64,000 nucleotides of DNA from the sequence record NC_135728.1; one strand, given 5' to 3'. Under the pieces are notes generated by a model that saw only the letters and a program-made list of their open reading frames with translations, was not told the DNA's origin and did no database searches. Positions 28,103 through 63,849 of this stretch are shown one piece after another. The first letter of the stretch is position 1; each line of letters begins with the position of its first letter. The position numbers and the translations under genes were made by a program. Source of the stretch: a phage.

Positions 28103-28421
28103 CGTTTATGTTCGGGCAAGGTCGCTAGTCTTGCCCCGCCATTTTCAGGCAGCTGCATGTCTCCATGCAGACCAGACTATATCTTATAAGCGACAACAAC
28201 CGCTTACCCTCCCGTTTCGAATCGCTTGATTCTACGTCTCTCGACTAGTCGTTGAACGTTCATCCTCTCGGATGCTTCGCTGCGGATTATCTAAATTAAC
28301 ACACTGTTACCCTACCTTCGATCTCTCTTCGAAGCCTCTATCATGTTACCATGACAGGTTGGTGGTGTCAATAATAAAGATTTCCCCGCAATTAGGGAGG
28401 TTTTACGAGAGCTGCAAATTA
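28103..28421 (-). ncRNA. group I self-splicing intron (ORF-less, about 319 nt) interrupting the large terminase gene
   Basis: Minus-strand sense contains the four conserved group I core elements: P AATTGCGGGGAAA (plus 28381-28400 region), Q AATCCGCAGC (28279-28288), R GTTCAACGACTAGTC (28243-28257), S AAGATATAGTCTGG (28172-28185); in-frame stop right after the 5' splice site; intron ends in G. Confidence 0.8.
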
Positions 28422-28847
28422 ACCCTCATCGAAGCAAACCATGGTGTACTCAAGCCCCTGATGGTTAAGCTTATCTTGTACATACTCCATGTGGCAGTAT
28501 TTTACAACAGCTCCCTTTTTGCTTCTATCCCACTTACCAGTGTTCGGATCAAACCGTGGAAAAATGAACTTATGATCCTTCTCTCTGAACTTTGGCTTAA
28601 TGTTTTCAGGCAGATCACTATAAATAGCTACTGCTTTAGGCCATAGTCCACCCTCACCTTCCAACTGTGGGGTTGTTCTTCGGAACATAACCACAGAGCT
28701 GTGGGGGTCATCAATAATTTTAAGTGGCATCAACTGCAAGAGGAACGACTTGCCAGACCCTGCGGCACCTCCGATTACCAAAATATCTGCATCGTTTTCT
28801 AGGATCATCTTCTGCTTTTCAGAACACGGTCCGTAAATCTTAGACAT
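28422..28847 (-). CDS. terminase large subunit, exon 1 (ATPase half)
   Basis: Walker A GGAAGSGKS and Walker B VCFDE; ends at ...VCFDEG followed by an intron-borne stop. Confidence 0.8.
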
Positions 28848-29950: not shown

Positions 29951-30027
29951 TGGTCTCCACGGAGTGATTCGAACACTCGACCTCCTGATCCCAAATCAGG
30001 CGCTCTACCAAGCTGAGCTACGCGGAG
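29951..30027 (-). tRNA. tRNA-Pro (anticodon UGG)
   Basis: Manual fold: acceptor CTCCGCG/CGTGGAG, D-arm GCTCAGCTTGGTAGAGC, anticodon loop TTTGGGA, T-loop TTCGAAT, encoded CCA. Confidence 0.8.
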
Positions 30028-30038
30028 TATTTATAATT

Positions 30039-30113
30039 TGGTGGCCCTGGGTGGAATTGAACCACCATCTGGCGATTATGAGTCGCTTGCTTGAACCTTC
30101 CAGCTACAGGGCC
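30039..30113 (-). tRNA. tRNA-Met (anticodon CAU; could alternatively be a lysidine-modified Ile2-type)
   Basis: Manual fold: acceptor GGCCCTG/CAGGGCC, anticodon loop CTCATAA, T-arm GGTGGTTCAATTCCACC, encoded CCA. Confidence 0.75.
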
Positions 30114-30114
30114 A

Positions 30115-30190
30115 TGGTGCTGATGGCAGGACTTGAACCTGCAACCTATTGATTACAAATCAATTGCACTGCCAATTGTGCTACATCAGC
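30115..30190 (-). tRNA. tRNA-Thr (anticodon UGU)
   Basis: Manual fold: acceptor GCTGATG/CATCAGC, anticodon stem ATTGA/TCAAT with loop TTTGTAA, T-arm GCAGGTTCAAGTCCTGC, encoded CCA. Confidence 0.85.
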
Positions 30191-30196
30191 AAAAAG

Positions 30197-30294
30197 GTGC
30201 TAGGCGGTGGAATCGAACCACCTATGTATTCAACGACTACCTCGTCTATTTTCAGGATTAAAAATCCTCGCCCTTGCCAAAGGGCTTACCTAGC
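30197..30294 (-). tRNA. atypical tRNA-like gene (about 98 nt; canonical acceptor and T-arm, aberrant anticodon/variable region, CCA not fully encoded)
   Basis: Acceptor GCTAGGT/GCCTAGC and T-arm GGTGG-TTCGATT-CCACC are canonical; only a 4-bp AGGA/TCCT stem with loop TTTTTAA and a ~30-nt region before the T-arm; positions 8-9 are AA. Confidence 0.4.
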
Positions 30295-30392
30295 TCAGTA
30301 TGTTGACCATGTTGCTAGTCGGCGATGACGACTGTAACATTTGATAATCCGGTTCTGCTTCCGGCTTTCGCTTAATTACAAGGTCAACAATG

Positions 30393-30483
30393 TGGCGGAG
30401 AGTAATGGAATCGAACCATCATCGAGTCATCCTCAATGGGACGGTTTTCAAGACCGCTTGAGCACCATTGCTCCCTACCCTCC
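30393..30483 (-). tRNA. tRNA-Ser (anticodon UGA), class II with long variable arm
   Basis: Manual fold: acceptor GGAGGGT/ACTCTCC, anticodon stem GCGGT/ACCGT with loop CTTGAAA, long variable arm, T-loop TTCGATT, encoded CCA. Confidence 0.75.
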
Positions 30484-30598
30484 TTTATAAATTATACTGA
30501 TAATGACACTGATTTTCGAGCAGTTAGTGACTAGTATAAACGACGATAAATATCAATGCCATTATCTGTATTATTTACGCATCTAAAAAATATAAATT

Positions 30599-30685
30599 TG
30601 GTGGGGAGTGGTGGAGTCGAACCACCCGAGTCGCAATGACAATAGATTTACAGTCTACACCGCTACCTCTACGGGATAACTCCCC
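30599..30685 (-). tRNA. tRNA-Tyr (anticodon GUA), class II
   Basis: Manual fold: acceptor GGGGAGT/ACTCCCC, anticodon stem GTAGA/TCTAT with loop CTGTAAA, T-arm GGTGGTTCGACTCCACC, encoded CCA. Confidence 0.8.
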
Positions 30686-30689
30686 AATT

Positions 30690-30764
30690 TGGCACCCCGT
30701 ACTGGACTCGAACCAGTGTCAACGGCTTAGAAGGCCGCTGCTTTATCCACTAAGCTAACAGGGC
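30690..30764 (-). tRNA. tRNA-Arg (anticodon UCU)
   Basis: Manual fold: D-arm GCTTAGTGGATAAAGC, anticodon stem GCGGC/GCCGT with loop CTTCTAA, T-arm ACTGGTTCGAGTCCAGT, encoded CCA. Confidence 0.8.
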
Positions 30765-30860: not shown

Positions 30861-31199
30861 TTAGCTATTGCTAACAGGCTGTATTTCTGTAGTAAATGGC
30901 ATAAAAGGTGCTGGTTTTTCAGCCTCTTCTACTACCACCTCTTCCTCTTCACCAAACATCTCATCATATTCTTCCTGCATTCGGTCTGCCTTATCAAGAA
31001 CATACTCTGCAATGCTTTGACGAATATTTTGTTTGGTTTTCGGGTCCAACATCAGCTCTCTTAAAACTTTGTGAGCTTCTGGAACCATCGCTATGAAAGA
31101 TTCCTTCATATCAAGGATGTTCTTCTCTAGCTGAATGGCGTTGGACTCCTCTTTCAGAGGTCTGCCTCTACGGCGACGCTTTTTAGTTGTATCCGCCAT
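30861..31199 (-). CDS. small AT-hook-like DNA-binding protein with acidic C-terminal tail (112 aa)
   Basis: Start chosen at internal Met (MADTTKKRRRRGRPLK) with GGAGG RBS 6 nt upstream and its own promoter; RGRP AT-hook motif; C-terminus EEYDEMFGEEEEVVVEEAE. Confidence 0.55.
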   Translation of the reverse strand: MADTTKKRRRRGRPLKEESNAIQLEKNILDMKESFIAMVPEAHKVLRELMLDPKTKQNIRQSIAEYVLDKADRMQEEYDEMFGEEEEVVVEEAEKPAPFMPFTTEIQPVSNS

Positions 31200-31227
31200 G
31201 TTTCCTCCATTATCACGTGATAGGTGG

Positions 31228-31256
31228 ATTTTATCATAGCAAATACTGATTGTCAA
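31228..31256 (-). promoter_or_regulatory. sigma70-like promoter for the AT-hook protein gene
   Basis: Minus-strand TTGACA, 17-bp spacer, TAAAAT, followed by GGAGG and ATG. Confidence 0.55.
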
Positions 31257-31545
31257 GTTCGCCGCAGGGTGGTATTCCCTGCGACTTGTCCAGCGTCCTG
31301 GACCAGCAAGACCCAACAAGTGGGTTACCAGAGGCCTATTACCCGCGCTTCGGCCCGACCTTGTTACAGGTTGGCTGGGGTCACATCGTCATGTGCTGGC
31401 TGCCCCTACCATTTTAAGTGTGGTGCACTATCAAGCCCTCTGAGGGGAACTCAGCTTTCTCCGAACCCTGTTTCAAAGCATCCGGAGATAAAGCCATCAA
31501 ATTCATCTTTAAATTGGATATTCATCATGATACACGAAAACAACC

Positions 31546-31788
31546 TCATTGTAAAGCACAAATAAATAAAACATACTTAATTTGTTTGTTATCAGGCTCA
31601 GGGTAGAAGTAGAAGATCTTGCTATCACCGATCTGAACACCACCATCCCAACAGCATAGCCCATAACCTGTATTCATACAAGCTAAGTCGTTGGCAAAAT
31701 CTATTGCATCATCCAGTGCACGAAATTCACCTTCATCTTCTAAATAATCCTCATTCATGGAACGAAAAACGAGCTTAACCTTAAACAT
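31546..31788 (-). CDS. hypothetical protein (80 aa)
   Basis: ORF track. Confidence 0.4.
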   Translation of the reverse strand: MFKVKLVFRSMNEDYLEDEGEFRALDDAIDFANDLACMNTGYGLCCWDGGVQIGDSKIFYFYPEPDNKQIKYVLFICALQ

Positions 31789-31864
31789 AGCATTACCTGT
31801 AGACCTCGTAAGTTAAAATTGCATCACATCATATTGCAGATCTTATCAGGTAACACTATTTTTG

Positions 31865-32074
31865 TCAACAGATTCCGGCCTTATCCTTCCTGTCTGCGTA
31901 TTCTTTAATCGCAACCTCATCTGCATTAGTGACCAGGTCTTCAAAGTAACTCTCAAGCTCCTCATCAATGTCAGGAGACCAGCTCTTTTTCCTGTCAGTG
32001 TGAATTGCAGACTTGTTGAACTTATTACAGTTCTTTGCTACCGGGTTGTTCATTAAGCGCTCCTCAGCGTTCAT
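31865..32074 (-). CDS. hypothetical protein (69 aa)
   Basis: ORF track; overlaps the start of the downstream gene. Confidence 0.35.
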   Translation of the reverse strand: MNAEERLMNNPVAKNCNKFNKSAIHTDRKKSWSPDIDEELESYFEDLVTNADEVAIKEYADRKDKAGIC

Positions 32075-32642
32075 AGTAAATCTTATTTAACATTACCTCA
32101 TCTTTTGCAGAAAGAATACCGAAATATGCATCACCGAATCTACCTGCAACAACCTCTGCATGATACATCACTTCGTTAATATCGTCAAGAGTGATAACTG
32201 GATGACCGTATCTCTCTGAGTATTGTCTCAGAGTGCGATGTAGAGAGTCATCATCATAGGCAGACTTTTTAATATCGCAAACACGACGAATAGCCTTGAT
32301 GTCGAAAAACCCTGTACGATACCAACCAAGAAAAAGGTTTCGTGCAGTGTCAACATCTACATCAATACCATCAAGAACCTTATCTACAAGATAGCTGTCA
32401 TCCTTTGGACCTGCTTCCTTAGTGCGAATGTAGTTGCCATCTTTTCCAGGTGACAGCTCCTTCTCATCACCAACCTGCATGCCATCATTTGGCGGTGTTA
32501 ACCACTTATCCGGATGCTTACGATCACGAGCGTTAGAATGATTACGCTGGAAACCTGGCTTCCACTTGAAAGTTTTCTCCATCTGTTCTTCATTCTGATA
32601 ACGTTTTGCAATCTTTTCACGGTCATCTTTGCGTGGACTCAT
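32064..32642 (-). CDS. hypothetical protein (192 aa)
   Basis: ORF track; GGAGG RBS upstream of ATG. Confidence 0.5.
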   Translation of the reverse strand: MSPRKDDREKIAKRYQNEEQMEKTFKWKPGFQRNHSNARDRKHPDKWLTPPNDGMQVGDEKELSPGKDGNYIRTKEAGPKDDSYLVDKVLDGIDVDVDTARNLFLGWYRTGFFDIKAIRRVCDIKKSAYDDDSLHRTLRQYSERYGHPVITLDDINEVMYHAEVVAGRFGDAYFGILSAKDEVMLNKIYYER

Positions 32643-33145
32643 AGCTGCCTCCTCTTCAAGTTATAGAAAAACTCACTGTATCGCTTTGTAACGAGCTTTT
32701 CTATCAAACTGGTGCGATTGCCTTACTTGGTATAGTTTATATGGCTGTGGAGCGATTTAGGGGCCTCATTGTCCGTTTCCACACATAAACTTTATCCAAA
32801 CTCGCGCGGGAATCTCTCAACCGACTCCTTACGGCGCTGGCAAGCTTTCGTCGGTGGTCCACATTAGTGCTCGGCCTTTGGCCTGCGCTATCGCTTCGCT
32901 CCCACACATGTTAACAGACCTGCATGTATGCACTTCTGTTATTGTGTGCACTATGGAGGCCCGGCATCTCGCCCCTCGTAGGCGAGTGCCAATGAAGGGC
33001 CGACACTACCTATAGAAAGTAATAAATTTAAAACATGGTACTTAGGATCTAGTATATTCTACATAAGTTAAGTATATGTACTTAGTACCATAAGTACTAG
33101 ATCTTTTATTTTTTATTATTTAGTTATTTTAGTTATATTCTTTAT

Positions 33146-33228
33146 GTGTCCGTATCACGGACAGTTAGTGTCCGTATCACGGACAGATGTGTCCGCGTGA
33201 CGGACAGTAGTGTCCGTATCACGGACAG
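33146..33228. repeat. array of four ~19-bp palindromic repeats (GTGTCCGTATCACGGACAG) at 21-22 bp spacing
   Basis: Copies at 33146-33164, 33168-33186, 33189-33207 (centre variant GCGTG) and 33210-33228; half-sites TGTCCG/CGGACA are perfect inverted repeats. Confidence 0.85.
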
Positions 33229-33302
33229 TTAATAGTTTCTGTTCCATGGTGAACATAAAACATACAAATCCTTATAGTACAGATATTTAAGTTTTTACTG
33301 GT

Positions 33303-33653
33303 CTAACCAGTTGTTGACATTCGAATAACTTCTTCTGGTGGCAAAACTTTGGAAAATGTGCATCTTTTACCTCTCCCTTGTGTGGATGTTTCAACAACTC
33401 CTGCACATTCTAAAGTTTTAACGCACGCTGCTGCTTTTGTTTTCTTTATCCCAACATCTGCTGCAATTTTCCTTGTGCTTGGTGTGAAGTGTGAATTTCC
33501 TCCAAGCTTATACCAGTTGTGCAGGTAGCAGTATACAATCTTGTCATACAAGTCAAGAACAACAACCTCCCCAGTTGTGTCATTCAAAACTTTTGACATA
33601 GATAGTATTTCAAGGGGGACTTTAAGATATAGCAGCTTATCCCCATCTTTCAT
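33303..33653 (-). CDS. putative DNA-binding protein (116 aa)
   Basis: ORF track; helix-turn-helix-like segment (TPSTRKIAADVGIKKTKAAACVKTLECAGVV); 75 bp from the palindromic repeat array. Confidence 0.4.
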   Translation of the reverse strand: MKDGDKLLYLKVPLEILSMSKVLNDTTGEVVVLDLYDKIVYCYLHNWYKLGGNSHFTPSTRKIAADVGIKKTKAAACVKTLECAGVVETSTQGRGKRCTFSKVLPPEEVIRMSTTG

Positions 33654-33700: not shown

Positions 33701-34255
33701 TTACTCCCTGCTGTCAATATCAAAACTCATTGCAATACGGTATGCCTCTTCTAATGGTAAGAGTCTCCCCCACACATCCCAACCGACATCAAACTGTCTA
33801 CCAAACAACTGTTGTGTGGTTCCGTGAGCATGACCGAACAGTTGGACTGATCCGTGATGCTTTCTGTTCCACGTTGCAAACTGGTAATGGCTCATACAGA
33901 TCAAATTCTTGTTGTGGCGAAGCTCGTAATAATCTACAACCTCATGACCGAACTCTTTCATAATTCTGACAGTCGTCCTTGTGTCATGGTTGCCACGAAC
34001 AAGAATAATATGTCCGTTCAACATATTTAGAATATCTGGAAGTAAGTTGTTGATATTCTTATCATTAGTGCACGCAATATCTCCCAGGTGGAACACAGTG
34101 TCTGCAGGTGACACAACTGAGTTCCACTCGGTGATGATTCCCGCATTCATACTGTCAAGATTGTGATCATATTGAGATCTGTGTTTTTGACATGAATCAA
34201 ACTCCATGACCCGCTGGTGGAGAAAGTGCGTATCGCTTGTTACAAAGTATTTCAT
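33701..34255 (-). CDS. calcineurin-like metallophosphoesterase (putative RNA 2',3'-phosphatase of an RNA-repair set)
   Basis: Motifs DTHF, GDIA, GNHD, GHAH; start set at internal Met with GAGGAA RBS just after the kinase stop. Confidence 0.65.
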   Translation of the reverse strand: MKYFVTSDTHFLHQRVMEFDSCQKHRSQYDHNLDSMNAGIITEWNSVVSPADTVFHLGDIACTNDKNINNLLPDILNMLNGHIILVRGNHDTRTTVRIMKEFGHEVVDYYELRHNKNLICMSHYQFATWNRKHHGSVQLFGHAHGTTQQLFGRQFDVGWDVWGRLLPLEEAYRIAMSFDIDSRE

Positions 34256-34262
34256 ACATTCC

Positions 34263-34673
34263 TCATTTAAGTTTAATGCAGTTTTTAAGCTGGCGTTCCA
34301 TACGATCCACAACCTTGTCTGGAACATCATGAATGCTTTTATTACCGTGGCGGTTTTCAACCACGATTACGGTATAACTATACCCATGACTGATTGCCAT
34401 GTCAACATATTCCTGCACATGTTTTTCTTTTGTAAACGTATTACTTACCACGATACGGTCGTATCCCATACACATCATATCTTCTACGTTATCTTTGCAC
34501 CATTTTGCTGCGAGTGTTACTTTACTTGCATCCCAGTTGTAATTGCCGTCATCGTCATACCAAAACATGTCATTCTCAAAATGTGGATACAGACCTTCTA
34601 AAGATAGCGCATTTGCCAGTGTTGATTTGCCAGACCCTGGCAGACCACGCACGATATATAGCATTTTAGACAT
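34263..34673 (-). CDS. P-loop polynucleotide kinase-like protein
   Basis: Walker A GLPGSGKST near the N-terminus; start at Met of MSKMLYIVRG with GGAGG RBS 7 nt upstream; ORF-track N-terminal extension judged spurious. Confidence 0.6.
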   Translation of the reverse strand: MSKMLYIVRGLPGSGKSTLANALSLEGLYPHFENDMFWYDDDGNYNWDASKVTLAAKWCKDNVEDMMCMGYDRIVVSNTFTKEKHVQEYVDMAISHGYSYTVIVVENRHGNKSIHDVPDKVVDRMERQLKNCIKLK

Positions 34674-34773
34674 AGCAATCCTCCGTTTTAATTTTAATGA
34701 TAGTATACCTAACTGTTTTGTTAATTTCAAGTGTTGACACCAGGTTGTTTGTGTGGCAGGATAGACTGACAAA

Positions 34774-35709
34774 ATGACAAATGAGGAACGTATGATGAAG
34801 TATTTTAATGCAGATGACCTAGTAGACAAAGGTCTTGTAACCAGTCGGTATTATCCAGATCTTGGATTAAAGATCTATAAATATGCCAGAAAAGTATTCT
34901 ACAACAATCTGTGGCATTTGTCTCCGCGTTTACTGGAGTGCCGAGGTATTGTTGTTGGCAATGAGGGGAATGTTGTGGCATGGCCTTTCACAAAAGTATT
35001 CAACTTAGGAGAAAACTCCACCAACCTACCGGACAGTAAACTTGTTACTGCGGTAGAGAAAAAGAACGGATTCCTCGGTGTGGTATCATCTCATAAAGGT
35101 GAACTATTGTTCTCAACAACCGGGTCTCTTGATTCCCCATATTGTAACCTCGCAAAAGAAACCATCAGGGAGCAATGTGGTAATTTAGATCTTATCAAGA
35201 AGGTTATGGGCAATGAAAACATGACATTCATGTTTGAAATTTGCCACCCTTCAGATCCGCATATTGTTCAGGAAGATCATGGCGCATATTTGATAGGTTG
35301 CAGATATAATGATTCTGGAATAATGCTACCAGAAGCAGCTTTAGATGGGATTGCCAAATACCTTGGTGCAAAACGTCCTCACACTGTGCGTGAAATTCCG
35401 TTCAGCTATGCAAAAGAATTAGCTGCAGAAACAAGAGGTGAAGGGTATATGATTCGTAAGCCTTACTACCCTTATGATCTGCAGCTGAAGATCAAGTCTC
35501 CATACTATCTGGCACGGAAGGCAGTAATGAGGGGTAAAGCTTGGAAGATTTGGGATGATGATATCTTTAAACGTGTTGACGAAGAGTTTTACGGTATGGT
35601 AAAATTTATTCGTAGCAACTATACAGAAGATGTGTGGAATTGCTTATTAGAGCAGGAGCGTCGTGAGATACTGGACTACTATTTCCACAACGAGGACTAT
35701 ATGCAATGA
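34774..35709 (+). CDS. RNA ligase, T4 Rnl1-like
   Basis: Stretches resembling T4 RNA ligase 1 as recalled: LECRGI, KVFNLGEN, nucleotidyl-transferase motif I KKNGFL, LFSTTGS. Confidence 0.65.
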   Translation: MTNEERMMKYFNADDLVDKGLVTSRYYPDLGLKIYKYARKVFYNNLWHLSPRLLECRGIVVGNEGNVVAWPFTKVFNLGENSTNLPDSKLVTAVEKKNGFLGVVSSHKGELLFSTTGSLDSPYCNLAKETIREQCGNLDLIKKVMGNENMTFMFEICHPSDPHIVQEDHGAYLIGCRYNDSGIMLPEAALDGIAKYLGAKRPHTVREIPFSYAKELAAETRGEGYMIRKPYYPYDLQLKIKSPYYLARKAVMRGKAWKIWDDDIFKRVDEEFYGMVKFIRSNYTEDVWNCLLEQERREILDYYFHNEDYMQ

Positions 35710-63565: not shown

Positions 63566-63849
63566 TCTGGATATCCTATGCTGATGGCACCATGCTGTAT
63601 ACTGCAGGTACCAGATATGAGGTTCAGGAGAACGATAAAAAATTTATCGTAAGAACATTTGACAAGGACGACAACCTTTTGCTAGAATTAACTTACAAGG
63701 TTGGGGATGTATCTAGCATCCAGTTGGATTGCGGTCATAAAGATAACCCACTCAAGAAACCTGGGGTAGGTAAAGCTTCAGAAAAACGCCTGTCTCGTAT
63801 TGCAGAAAGCGTTTCTGCACAAAAATCTAAGAAGGGGACTAGAAAATGA
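63562..63849 (+). CDS. hypothetical protein (95 aa)
   Basis: ORF track. Confidence 0.4.
   Translation: MIWISYADGTMLYTAGTRYEVQENDKKFIVRTFDKDDNLLLELTYKVGDVSSIQLDCGHKDNPLKKPGVGKASEKRLSRIAESVSAQKSKKGTRK

Follow-up and report, generated by a model that had tools for sequence, protein, structure and literature searches.

The GC-rich island A of the phage studied here (about 31257-31520) is, judging from comparative sequence analysis, a conserved multi-hairpin structured RNA of the minus, gene-sense strand, and its core is, on the same grounds, a member of a family common to unrelated virulent phages of Gammaproteobacteria. That the island is a functional structured RNA of this three-way-junction family can be held with high confidence. 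The best explanation as a whole, in which such a family RNA would be matured together with tRNAs and would act in trans, is given about an even chance. The window, which is the whole 64,000-nucleotide stretch of record NC_135728.1 that was analysed, is by sequence identity an rV5-like Vequintavirus, and more than 100 rV5-like coliphages of this genus show 97-99% identity to the 2.5 kb around island A.

All genes and tRNAs surrounding island A are carried by the minus strand. In the direction of that strand the iterons (33146-33229) come first, followed by a small initiator gene, island B (about 32700-33010), three small ORFs (the ORF77-, ORF76- and ORF75-like genes), island A, the promoter P74, the AT-hook ORF (30861-31199), another promoter and seven tRNA genes, which ARAGORN places at 29951-30764 (minus). 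The tRNA cluster lies 430 nt downstream of the island A RNA in the same direction, and the distance from the core motif (31331-31378) to the start of the cluster, downstream on the same minus strand, is about 570 nt. An earlier note on this DNA had described a GC-rich island between AT-rich flanks, and the description holds, with GC at about 53-55% across 31200-31499 (0.53-0.545) and about 36-44% on either side. Its proposal of a candidate structured RNA is strongly supported, by covariation, strand-specific G.U pairs, helix swaps and a core common to unrelated phage families. The folding energy of the minus strand is better than that of shuffled sequences (z -2.36; 0 of 200 shuffles as good); for the plus strand z is -1.30, with 23 of 200 shuffles as good.

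Comparative alignment with covariation analysis, which the earlier note had suggested as a check, was carried out on 12 Vequintavirus sequences, including an IMG/VR relative with 83% protein identity (L014) and the most divergent GenBank records, and the structure was scored over ten helices (H1, H2, S1, S2, Pc, Pa, Pb, S5, S6 and S7) comprising 56 pairs. The alignment contains compensatory changes, and in the minus sense 99.7% of cells are paired. Double compensatory changes occur at five pairs, with a score reached by 0 of 500 column shuffles, among sequences that are closely related and with most of the double changes tracing to the L014 lineage. One-sided changes in the minus sense all yield G.U or restore A-U, and sliding the partners by 1-3 columns lowers pairing to 34-47%. 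The plus-strand mirror structure is 91.2% paired, and there the one-sided changes are breaks without exception. Such a wobble asymmetry between the strands is what RNA predicts and DNA does not, and thus settles the strand and marks the element as a minus-sense RNA rather than a DNA hairpin. Both of the stem-loops quoted in the earlier note are recovered, cgcagggtggtattccctgcg as helix S7 (31261-31285) and gaccttgttacaggttgg as helix Pa (31356-31369), and on the pairing evidence these are conserved helices that function on the opposite (minus) strand; they had been quoted from the plus strand, with no strand named for the RNA. The local Pb hairpin was preferred to a long-range pairing given by RNAalifold (GGGCUUG/CGAGCC), which was rejected since in L014 a C to G change is offset by a G to C change inside Pb but disrupts the long-range pair.

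An element acting at the level of DNA and spread horizontally, whether an origin-linked single-strand initiation or primosome site, a packaging signal or a mobile promoter-hairpin cassette, would fit poorly with wobble tolerated in the minus sense only, which is unexpected for DNA hairpins, with a motif whose orientation is always that of the tRNAs and genes and which is not near iterons in other phages, and with helices whose sequences are replaced and whose pairing is retained. It is judged very improbable, even though the iterons and initiator gene lie 1.7 kb from island A, S7 together with P74 resembles a hairpin-promoter cassette, and T4 and the rV5-like phage Aya have 41 identical nucleotides in common, which could mean recent exchange.

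The statement that the island contains no ORF needs qualification. A 30-aa ORF on the minus strand (31414-31506), which some relatives have annotated, and ORFs of 55 and 113 aa on the plus strand cross it, but neither their lengths nor their frames are kept in relatives; these shifting frames and lengths, together with tolerated indels of 1, 2, 3 and 14 nt, indicate that island A is non-coding. A protein-coding role for the 30-aa ORF or for the 113-aa plus-strand ORF, which would draw on the presence of these frames in the window and on a 99-nt CDS annotated in phages nom and V18, is therefore given next to no weight: the plus-strand ORF is split differently in each relative, the 30-aa ORF is lost in three divergent contigs (L028, L043 and L050), and substitutions track base pairing and not codon positions. 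Among the relatives compared, the noncoding identity of island A equals that of the adjoining coding genes.

In the window phage, a possible start of the island A transcript is a promoter-like site predicted by consensus scan on the minus strand (TTTACA-17-TATCAT, 31527..31555), which lies upstream of H1, overlaps the end of the ORF75-like gene and has, in relatives, a -10 element that varies only at position 4 (TATCAT/TATGAT/TATTAT). The first hairpin, H1 (UCUCCGGAUGC...GGGUUCGGAGA, 31458..31488, minus), has 11 pairs with 100% of cells paired, and each of its four one-sided changes leads to G.U or U-A, all of them being broken on the plus strand. From the comparison with L028-type relatives, in which a promoter stands in its place, H1 is a lineage-specific 5' extension. 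Hairpin H2 (CUGAG-UUCCC-CUCAG, 31440..31454, minus) maintains a G-C/G.U alternation, and an alternative CCC..GGG hairpin could compete with it. The box CUUGAUAGUGCACCACACUUAAAAUGGUA that follows (31407..31435, minus) is invariant and apparently unpaired: it is identical in 12 of 12 aligned Vequintavirus sequences and nearly identical in further metagenomic relatives, two of which differ by 1-2 bases, and the 70%-identical L028, L043 and L050 retain it in slightly altered form. Stem S1 (GGGG/CCCC), with the internal loop CAGCCAG, is then formed around hairpin S2 (CACAU-GACG-AUGUG; together 31377..31406, minus).

The core three-way junction (31331..31378, minus), which is the part described by covariance model R1, consists of helix Pc, Pa, Pb and the joiner GG(G)UAAU(A/G); in the window Pa is ACCU-GUAACA-AGGU and Pb is GCC-GAA-G(C)GC. 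On its 3' side, hairpin S5 (ACCCA-CUUGU-UGGGU, 31311..31325, minus) shows an A-U to U-A swap in L014, but a deletion in phiWec189 removes it almost precisely (14 of 15 nt, CCCACUUGUUGGGU) and the relative L059 has lost part of it, and on this pattern of loss it is dispensable. Hairpin S6 (GUCCAG-GACG-CUGGAC, 31288..31303, minus) has two double compensatory swaps in L014 (GCUCAG/CUGAGC) and a U-A to U.G change in three relatives. The last hairpin, S7 (GUCGCAGGG-AAUACCA-CCCUGCGGC, 31261..31285, minus), has an invariant 9-bp stem and a loop variable at four positions; it has no U-tract, the terminator scan called no terminator there, and it is not a canonical intrinsic terminator. The RNA is abutted by a sigma70 promoter (TTGACA-17-TAAAAT, 31228..31256, minus, reading 31256..31228), which scores 11/12 in the consensus scan, is named P74 in the rV5 record and serves the ORF74-like AT-hook gene, so that a sigma70-like promoter of this gene does adjoin the island as the earlier note had claimed. 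The window scan found no intrinsic terminator between the RNA and P74/ORF74, and lacking a terminator before P74 the island A RNA could be a section of a longer mRNA.

Further evidence for the structure comes from more distant relatives in which the helices are kept and their sequences are not. Four contigs make up a set whose flanking genes are about 70% identical (L028, to which L049 is identical, together with L043 and L050), and in L028, L043 and L050 the gene order is unchanged and the island is at the same position. S1 is GGGG/CCCC in the window and GGAAC/GUUCC in the L028 type; S2 is CACAU-GACG-AUGUG in the window and CUACG-GACG-CGUAG in the L028 type, with the tetraloop kept; and S6 changes from GUCCAG-GACG-CUGGAC to GCUGG-GGACGGA-CCAGC in the same place. 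H1 and H2, present in the window, give way in the L028 type to a strong promoter (TTGACA-17-TATACT), whose predicted start coincides with the first conserved nucleotides of the RNA, and a second TTGACA promoter lies directly 3' of the RNA. A TTGACA promoter also follows the RNA immediately in the Kagunavirus fEg-Eco19. In T4-likes, an equivalent hairpin is found upstream of the junction, and its outer stem covaries (GGGAA/UUCCC and GGGAG/CUCCC). A search for syntenic homologues in other Vequintavirinae genera by means of the ORF77-like protein found this protein confined to Vequintavirus.

The core was aligned in 35 distinct versions, gapless except for one inserted G. In Pc, the first pair is C-G in 26 versions, U-A in 7 and G-C in 1, the second is C-G in 29 and G-C in 5, and the third is a mixture of G.U, A-U, G-C and C-G. 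Pa is a 4-bp hairpin (ACCU, a GUARNA loop and AGGU), and Pb is a 3-bp hairpin whose middle pair is C-G in 30, U-A in 3 and G-C in 1. The joiner GGUAAUG is invariant save for the inserted G and one G/A position. The observed covariation score is attained by 0 of 500 shuffles of the 35 distinct sequences, with the proviso that the search pattern itself dictated Pa and most of Pb, and these helices therefore provide no independent covariation. In fEg-Eco19, which was found by BLAST and hence independently of the pattern, a U-A pair of Pa is changed to U.G, and G-C replaces A.C at the base of Pa. Covariance model R1 matches the window once, on the minus strand at 31331-31378 (59 bits, E 8e-18), and this copy has the closing helix, Pa, Pb and GGUAAUG joiner that define the family. 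Other members score 51-72 bits, with exactly one copy in each source searched, and R1 has no match to island B or to the satellite-like plasmids discussed below.

A hairpin immediately precedes the junction in all lineages, and a few nucleotides of its loop or internal loop are complementary to those of the tail next to Pc, through sequences that are specific to each lineage: CGGA/UCCG (loop/tail) in the group of 46-70-kb genomes, CCGG/CCGG in the contig L037 and fEg-Eco19, GCCAG/CUGGU in the rV5 type, GUGAGGG/CCCUUAC in the L028 type and UUCU(GUG)/(UAC)AGAA in several T4-likes. This complementarity leads to the hypothesis of a loop-tail pseudoknot, the helices of which would be short and, in most single sequences, not above shuffled controls.

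The family extends well beyond Vequintavirus. Sensitive blastn of island A matched about 40 nt in T4-like phages and in one Pseudomonas phage, a search with a degenerate pattern derived from these sequences retrieved 18 IMG/VR loci and 26 metagenome loci, and blastn with one new member returned about 580 phage records. The matching records include Straboviridae (T4), Vequintavirus, the N4-like Klebsiella phage KpCHEMY26 (Schitoviridae), the Kagunavirus fEg-Eco19, phiE142 and PsgM04F, and the motif is also carried by a jumbo-phage contig (L023). Most of the approximately 580 records have no annotation beneath the match, and the others have only hypothetical ORFs there. A pattern scan of 596 Gb of bacterial and archaeal genomes gave one match only, a chance match inside a CDS. 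The earlier note had named a recently acquired host fragment as an alternative, but blastn of the island against 5,426 E. coli genomes yields no match at E<=0.1, and together with the lone chance match in 596 Gb this excludes an origin as a host fragment.

The T4 copy is in the denV-vs.8 spacer, outside the tRNA cluster. The Vs.8 PHROG profile begins about 21 residues past the first possible AUG, and in a T5-sized relative the start of vs.8 is out of frame with that AUG, which places the T4 motif in a 5' untranslated region. In T4-likes and phiE142-likes, 25-35 nt separate the motif from the start codon of the vs.8-type gene downstream of it. One T4-like contig encodes a Vs.8 with only 38% identity to that of T4, yet its motif is nearly unchanged and its upstream stem is compensated, which indicates selection on the RNA itself. 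A Vs.8-type protein was considered as a universal partner of the RNA and rejected, its homologues occurring only in T4-like and phiE142-like loci; Vs.8 itself belongs to no informative family.

At non-T4 loci that have tRNA genes, the motif is always on the tRNA strand and 50-700 nt away. It follows a tRNA directly, within a few tens of nucleotides, in L023 and L065, and in PsgM04F it occupies a 500-nt gap within the tRNA cluster; no tRNAs are found near it in fEg-Eco19. In the 46-70-kb group, which includes KpCHEMY26, and in PsgM04F, the motif is part of a module of about 115 nt, closed by an inner stem (GUUGUGAC/GUCACAAC) and then by an outer 12-bp stem of conserved flanks (AGUGCUCUUAUC / GGUAAGAGCAUU). 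Neighbouring modules, one of them with a canonical T-arm, are framed by these flanks as well, and in the 46-70-kb group 20-bp processing-type stems bracket the RNA in arrays with tRNAs and tRNA-like RNAs. Modules with bracketing stems are the usual organisation of separately matured stable RNAs.

The RNA was also compared with known RNAs. An Rfam search, as the earlier note had proposed, gave no support for a described family, since Rfam 15 has no match in the island either at gathering thresholds or at E<=10; nor does Rfam match over the motif in 10 related loci, or at permissive thresholds in the contigs L029 and L066. ARAGORN finds nothing in island A, and tRNA and tmRNA models have no match in 31150-33100. 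In this same interval there are no tandem repeats beyond the iterons, and within island A there are no direct repeats. Mimicry of the 23S rRNA GTPase centre (H44-H45, 1089-1131) was considered and rejected: R1 has no match on rrnH with filters off. The GUAAUA loop is the same as the 23S H44 loop and is followed by GGUCGAG..GCGCGG..UAAC in the same order, but this is not above shuffled controls, and the best Smith-Waterman score of the T4 version does fall on 23S 1089-1131, but is equalled or exceeded by 190 of 300 shuffles. No paper on the island A RNA or its motif was found in the literature, and the island A RNA may be among the 10,006 unnamed viral RNA candidates of a bulk catalogue (PMC10690425).

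The earlier note had further proposed that island A shares short motifs with island B and that the two are a duplicated element, and neither proposal survives. The only repeat between the two is 16 nt at 81%, which is chance-sized: six further two-copy families of this size arise by chance in these 1.8 kb, local BLAST gives the match E=13, and close relatives do not preserve the GTGCACTAT box in their island B. The pairwise alignment of A against B by MAFFT is rich in gaps, with scattered short matches and no conserved block, and local BLAST, repeat search and covariance model likewise fail to link them. Island B is, on these comparisons, a separate structured element unrelated to island A. 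It is conserved and rich in hairpins, and an 18-nt deletion in rV5 itself preserves the hairpin CACACAUG...CAUGUGUG. Parts of it are also present in noncoding DNA of 13-kb circular E. coli satellite-like 'plasmids', which encode capsid, tape-measure and baseplate proteins, and the stems covary between the two (CCGAC/GUCGG and CUGCC/GGCAG; CUCGCC/GGCGAG and CUCUCC/GGAGAG). The common region adjoins iterons in the plasmids too.

With these observations, the following explanation is proposed. The locus would produce a non-coding, structured RNA that measures about 190-260 nt between its predicted ends, from the minus strand and in the same sense as the early genes and the tRNA cluster. Its conserved heart is the S1/S2 hairpin with the internal loop followed by the 45-nt junction, around which H1, H2 and S5-S7 are arranged as lineage-specific accessories. 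Production would be early, either from an own promoter, which is clear in L028 and weaker in the window, or by read-through from ORF75. The RNA would be made as, or cut into, a discrete stable small RNA along with the tRNAs, and would act in trans via its invariant unpaired nucleotides. Candidate partners include a conserved host or phage factor of translation or tRNA processing, or a tRNA-directed host defence. That the RNA is trans-acting and stable, rather than a cis-acting leader, is a tentative preference from sequence evidence, held at somewhat below even chances.

A cis-acting leader is the main rival to a trans-acting RNA. In that role the element would affect nothing but its own transcript, as leader or insulator for vs.8 in T4 and for ORF74 and the tRNAs in rV5, for example through the translation or stability of the gene that follows, or else as a polymerase-modifying RNA like HK022 put or rrn boxA that lets the untranslated tRNA array be read through, and such a role is considered unlikely, though to be taken seriously. 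In two phage groups the motif does belong to the 5' UTR of a vs.8-type gene, and the missing terminator before P74 in the window is matched in L028, where the RNA begins at the promoter and no terminator precedes the next gene. However, the downstream gene varies by lineage (vs.8, the AT-hook gene, tRNAs or nothing). A promoter follows the RNA in three lineages, as would suit a leader or insulator, yet in rV5-type phages the downstream gene is separated from the RNA by this second promoter, which makes a leader role for that gene redundant. As to read-through, the RNA of L028 lies just downstream of a promoter, the position expected of an antiterminator RNA of the HK022 put type, and the bracketing stems of the 46-70-kb group start with UGCUCUUA, resembling the rrn boxA UGCUCUUUA; no boxA-like sequence was found in island A with up to 3 mismatches, and the processing-type stems that surround the RNA in the 46-70-kb group give it the look of a gene of its own.

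If the proposed explanation is true, rV5-likes and T4, the best studied of all phages, carry an unannotated structured RNA that is common to N4-like, Kagunavirus, Pseudomonas and jumbo phages. An RNA that travels with phage tRNA genes bears on roles of tRNA regions beyond codon supply, for example in countering tRNA-cleaving defences, in translation takeover or in the maturation of stable RNAs. Both T4 and rV5 are genetically tractable, which would make testing easy, and covariance model R1 enables annotation of the family.

Among known systems, T4 rnaC and rnaD (species 1 and 2) are small stable RNAs of the T4 tRNA cluster to which no function has been assigned. Like the island A RNA they are small, tRNA-gene-linked phage RNAs, presumably matured by tRNA-processing enzymes; the T4 copy of the motif, however, is outside the tRNA cluster, and the likeness is one of context with no homology claimed. 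The PeSL cassettes of T4-type phages, which Arbiol, Comeau and Krisch reportedly described in 2010, consist of a hairpin and an early sigma70 promoter. S7 and P74 are similar in that a GC-rich hairpin is followed at once by an early sigma70 promoter, but a PeSL cassette would cover only the last 55 nt and leaves the 190-nt multi-helix RNA and its cross-family junction unexplained.

Larger RNAs with a comparable setting are GOLLD and ROOL, structured RNAs of 500-800 nt that are often found in phages or prophages beside tRNA genes (Rfam; PMC12286853). These have their own Rfam models and that greater length, whereas the present core measures about 45-110 nt and is carried by virulent coliphages and related phages. 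Nearer in size are the HDV-like theta ribozymes, self-cleaving RNAs which lie within 5 nt of a phage tRNA and fold into a nested double pseudoknot whose J4/2 has a catalytic C (PMC10879173). They resemble the motif as compact RNAs in phage tRNA regions and offer a precedent for elements in tRNA-array maturation (PMC10879173). By analogy, the motif might be a self-cleaving or catalytic RNA that helps to cut a stable-RNA array, a possibility to which its compact junction, its many invariant unpaired nucleotides, its possible pseudoknot and its association with tRNA arrays would all lend themselves. It is nevertheless improbable, as the motif is 50-700 nt from the tRNA and never within 5 nt of a tRNA end, its covariation-supported topology of hairpin, three-way junction and tail does not fit the HDV-like nested double pseudoknot, neither an HDV-family model nor any Rfam ribozyme model matches it even at E<=10, and the T4 copy is outside the tRNA array.

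For an anti-defence reading of the RNA, the pseudo-ToxI ncRNA of PhiTE, an rV5-like phage of the same subfamily, may serve as a precedent, being an RNA decoy against host defence (PMC3475682). Pseudo-ToxI is a tandem array of 36-nt repeats, in contrast to island A, which is without such arrays. A new RNA class with members in many unrelated virulent phages including T4, acting as a ribozyme or as a decoy, sponge or cofactor on a universal host target of translation or tRNA metabolism or on a tRNA-directed defence, is rather doubtful as a reading, but the near-invariance of the unpaired nucleotides, while neighbouring proteins fall to 38% identity, would follow from such a conserved-target role. 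Overall, the nearest analogues of the island A RNA (rnaC/rnaD, GOLLD/ROOL, theta ribozymes and pseudo-ToxI) are alike in context, not in sequence.

Island B (window 32700-33010) is a conserved, hairpin-rich element that is separate from island A. Portions of it recur, with compensatory changes in the stems, in a stretch of noncoding DNA carried by circular E. coli 'plasmids' of 13 kb (NZ_CP020521, CP148565, NZ_CP035869, NZ_CP043822 and NZ_CP178698; loci compared, L008 4000-4300, L009, L011, L012 and L013). In phage and 'plasmids' alike, the island lies between the iterons and the first genes. Its modules are shuffled from one plasmid to another, and many of the stems end with CCCACACA (plus strand). 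In the minus sense, island B also contains CAUGUGUGGGAGCGAAG (window 32894-32910), which resembles the rrn leader boxC CUGUGUGGGCACUCGAAG (L068, the rrn comparison locus, 155-172), and its invariant 3' block includes AAGCUCGUUACAAAGCG (window 32682-32698), loosely similar to boxA. Both resemblances may be due to chance.

The iterons of the phage are four 21-bp repeats (GTGTCCGTATCACGGACAGTA, window 33146-33229) adjoining an AT-rich stretch and a gene on the minus strand (window 33303-33653) for a winged-helix-type initiator of 116 aa. This iteron region, 1.7 kb from island A, is likely the replication origin. Iterons are also present in the 13-kb 'plasmids', together with a promoter resembling rV5 P74, the sigma70 promoter that abuts island A. 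The genes of the 'plasmids' (the whole NZ_CP020521 record is 13,689 bp) include those for a major capsid protein, a baseplate protein and a tape-measure protein, as well as for HTH/MarR-type regulators. The capsid protein bears only a remote likeness (~22-25% identity) to capsid proteins of 140-150-kb phages. In appearance the 'plasmids' are candidates for phage satellites or mini phage-plasmids with a link to rV5-like phages.

A full-length group I intron (window 28153-28457, minus strand; Rfam RF00028, 79.4 bits, E 1.6e-18) is located upstream of the region that holds the spanin and the tRNAs. ARAGORN also calls a 99-nt tRNA-like gene with a four-base anticodon (atcc) at window 30196-30294 on the minus strand, annotated as tRNA-OTHER or tRNA-Lys in other records and missing from the rV5 annotation. 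Three adjacent genes (window 33701-35709), at 2-4 kb from the tRNA cluster and both islands, code for a metallophosphoesterase, a P-loop kinase-like protein and an RNA ligase. Together they resemble a repair cassette for RNA or tRNA, and this may bear on what the nearby RNAs do.

In T4, the spacer between denV and vs.8 is filled by the motif and the conserved hairpin preceding it (L003 2497-2543, corresponding to 63771-63817 of OZ209023; also locus L021 1201-1243). Annotation of this stretch varies among T4 records: it is either left blank or taken as the N-terminal part of a vs.8 ORF that has been over-extended.

Motif-carrying stable-RNA arrays of N4-like and 46-kb phages contain reading frames that resemble tmRNA tags (ANDDVVLMAA* and ANEEMYLAVA*). 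The regions concerned (3001-3088 in L066, from Klebsiella phage KpCHEMY26, and 1780-1844 in array locus L029) have sub-threshold Rfam matches to tmRNA_permuted (33.7 bits, E 6e-5) and tmRNA, and tRNA-like modules with a T-arm, uncalled by ARAGORN, are found near the frames. These regions are possibly unannotated phage tmRNAs.

Conserved flanks in inverted orientation, AGUGCUCUUAUCGUUGUG ... CACAACAGGUAAGAGCAUU, enclose RNA modules in the arrays and form ~20 bp of stem (L029 1999-2019 and 2108-2136; L066 2504-2524 and 2618-2645; also locus L005). The 5' flank starts with UGCUCUUA, which can be likened to the rrn boxA UGCUCUUUAACAA (L068 128-140). These features suggest that phage stable-RNA arrays undergo either antitermination in the style of rRNA operons or processing by RNase III.
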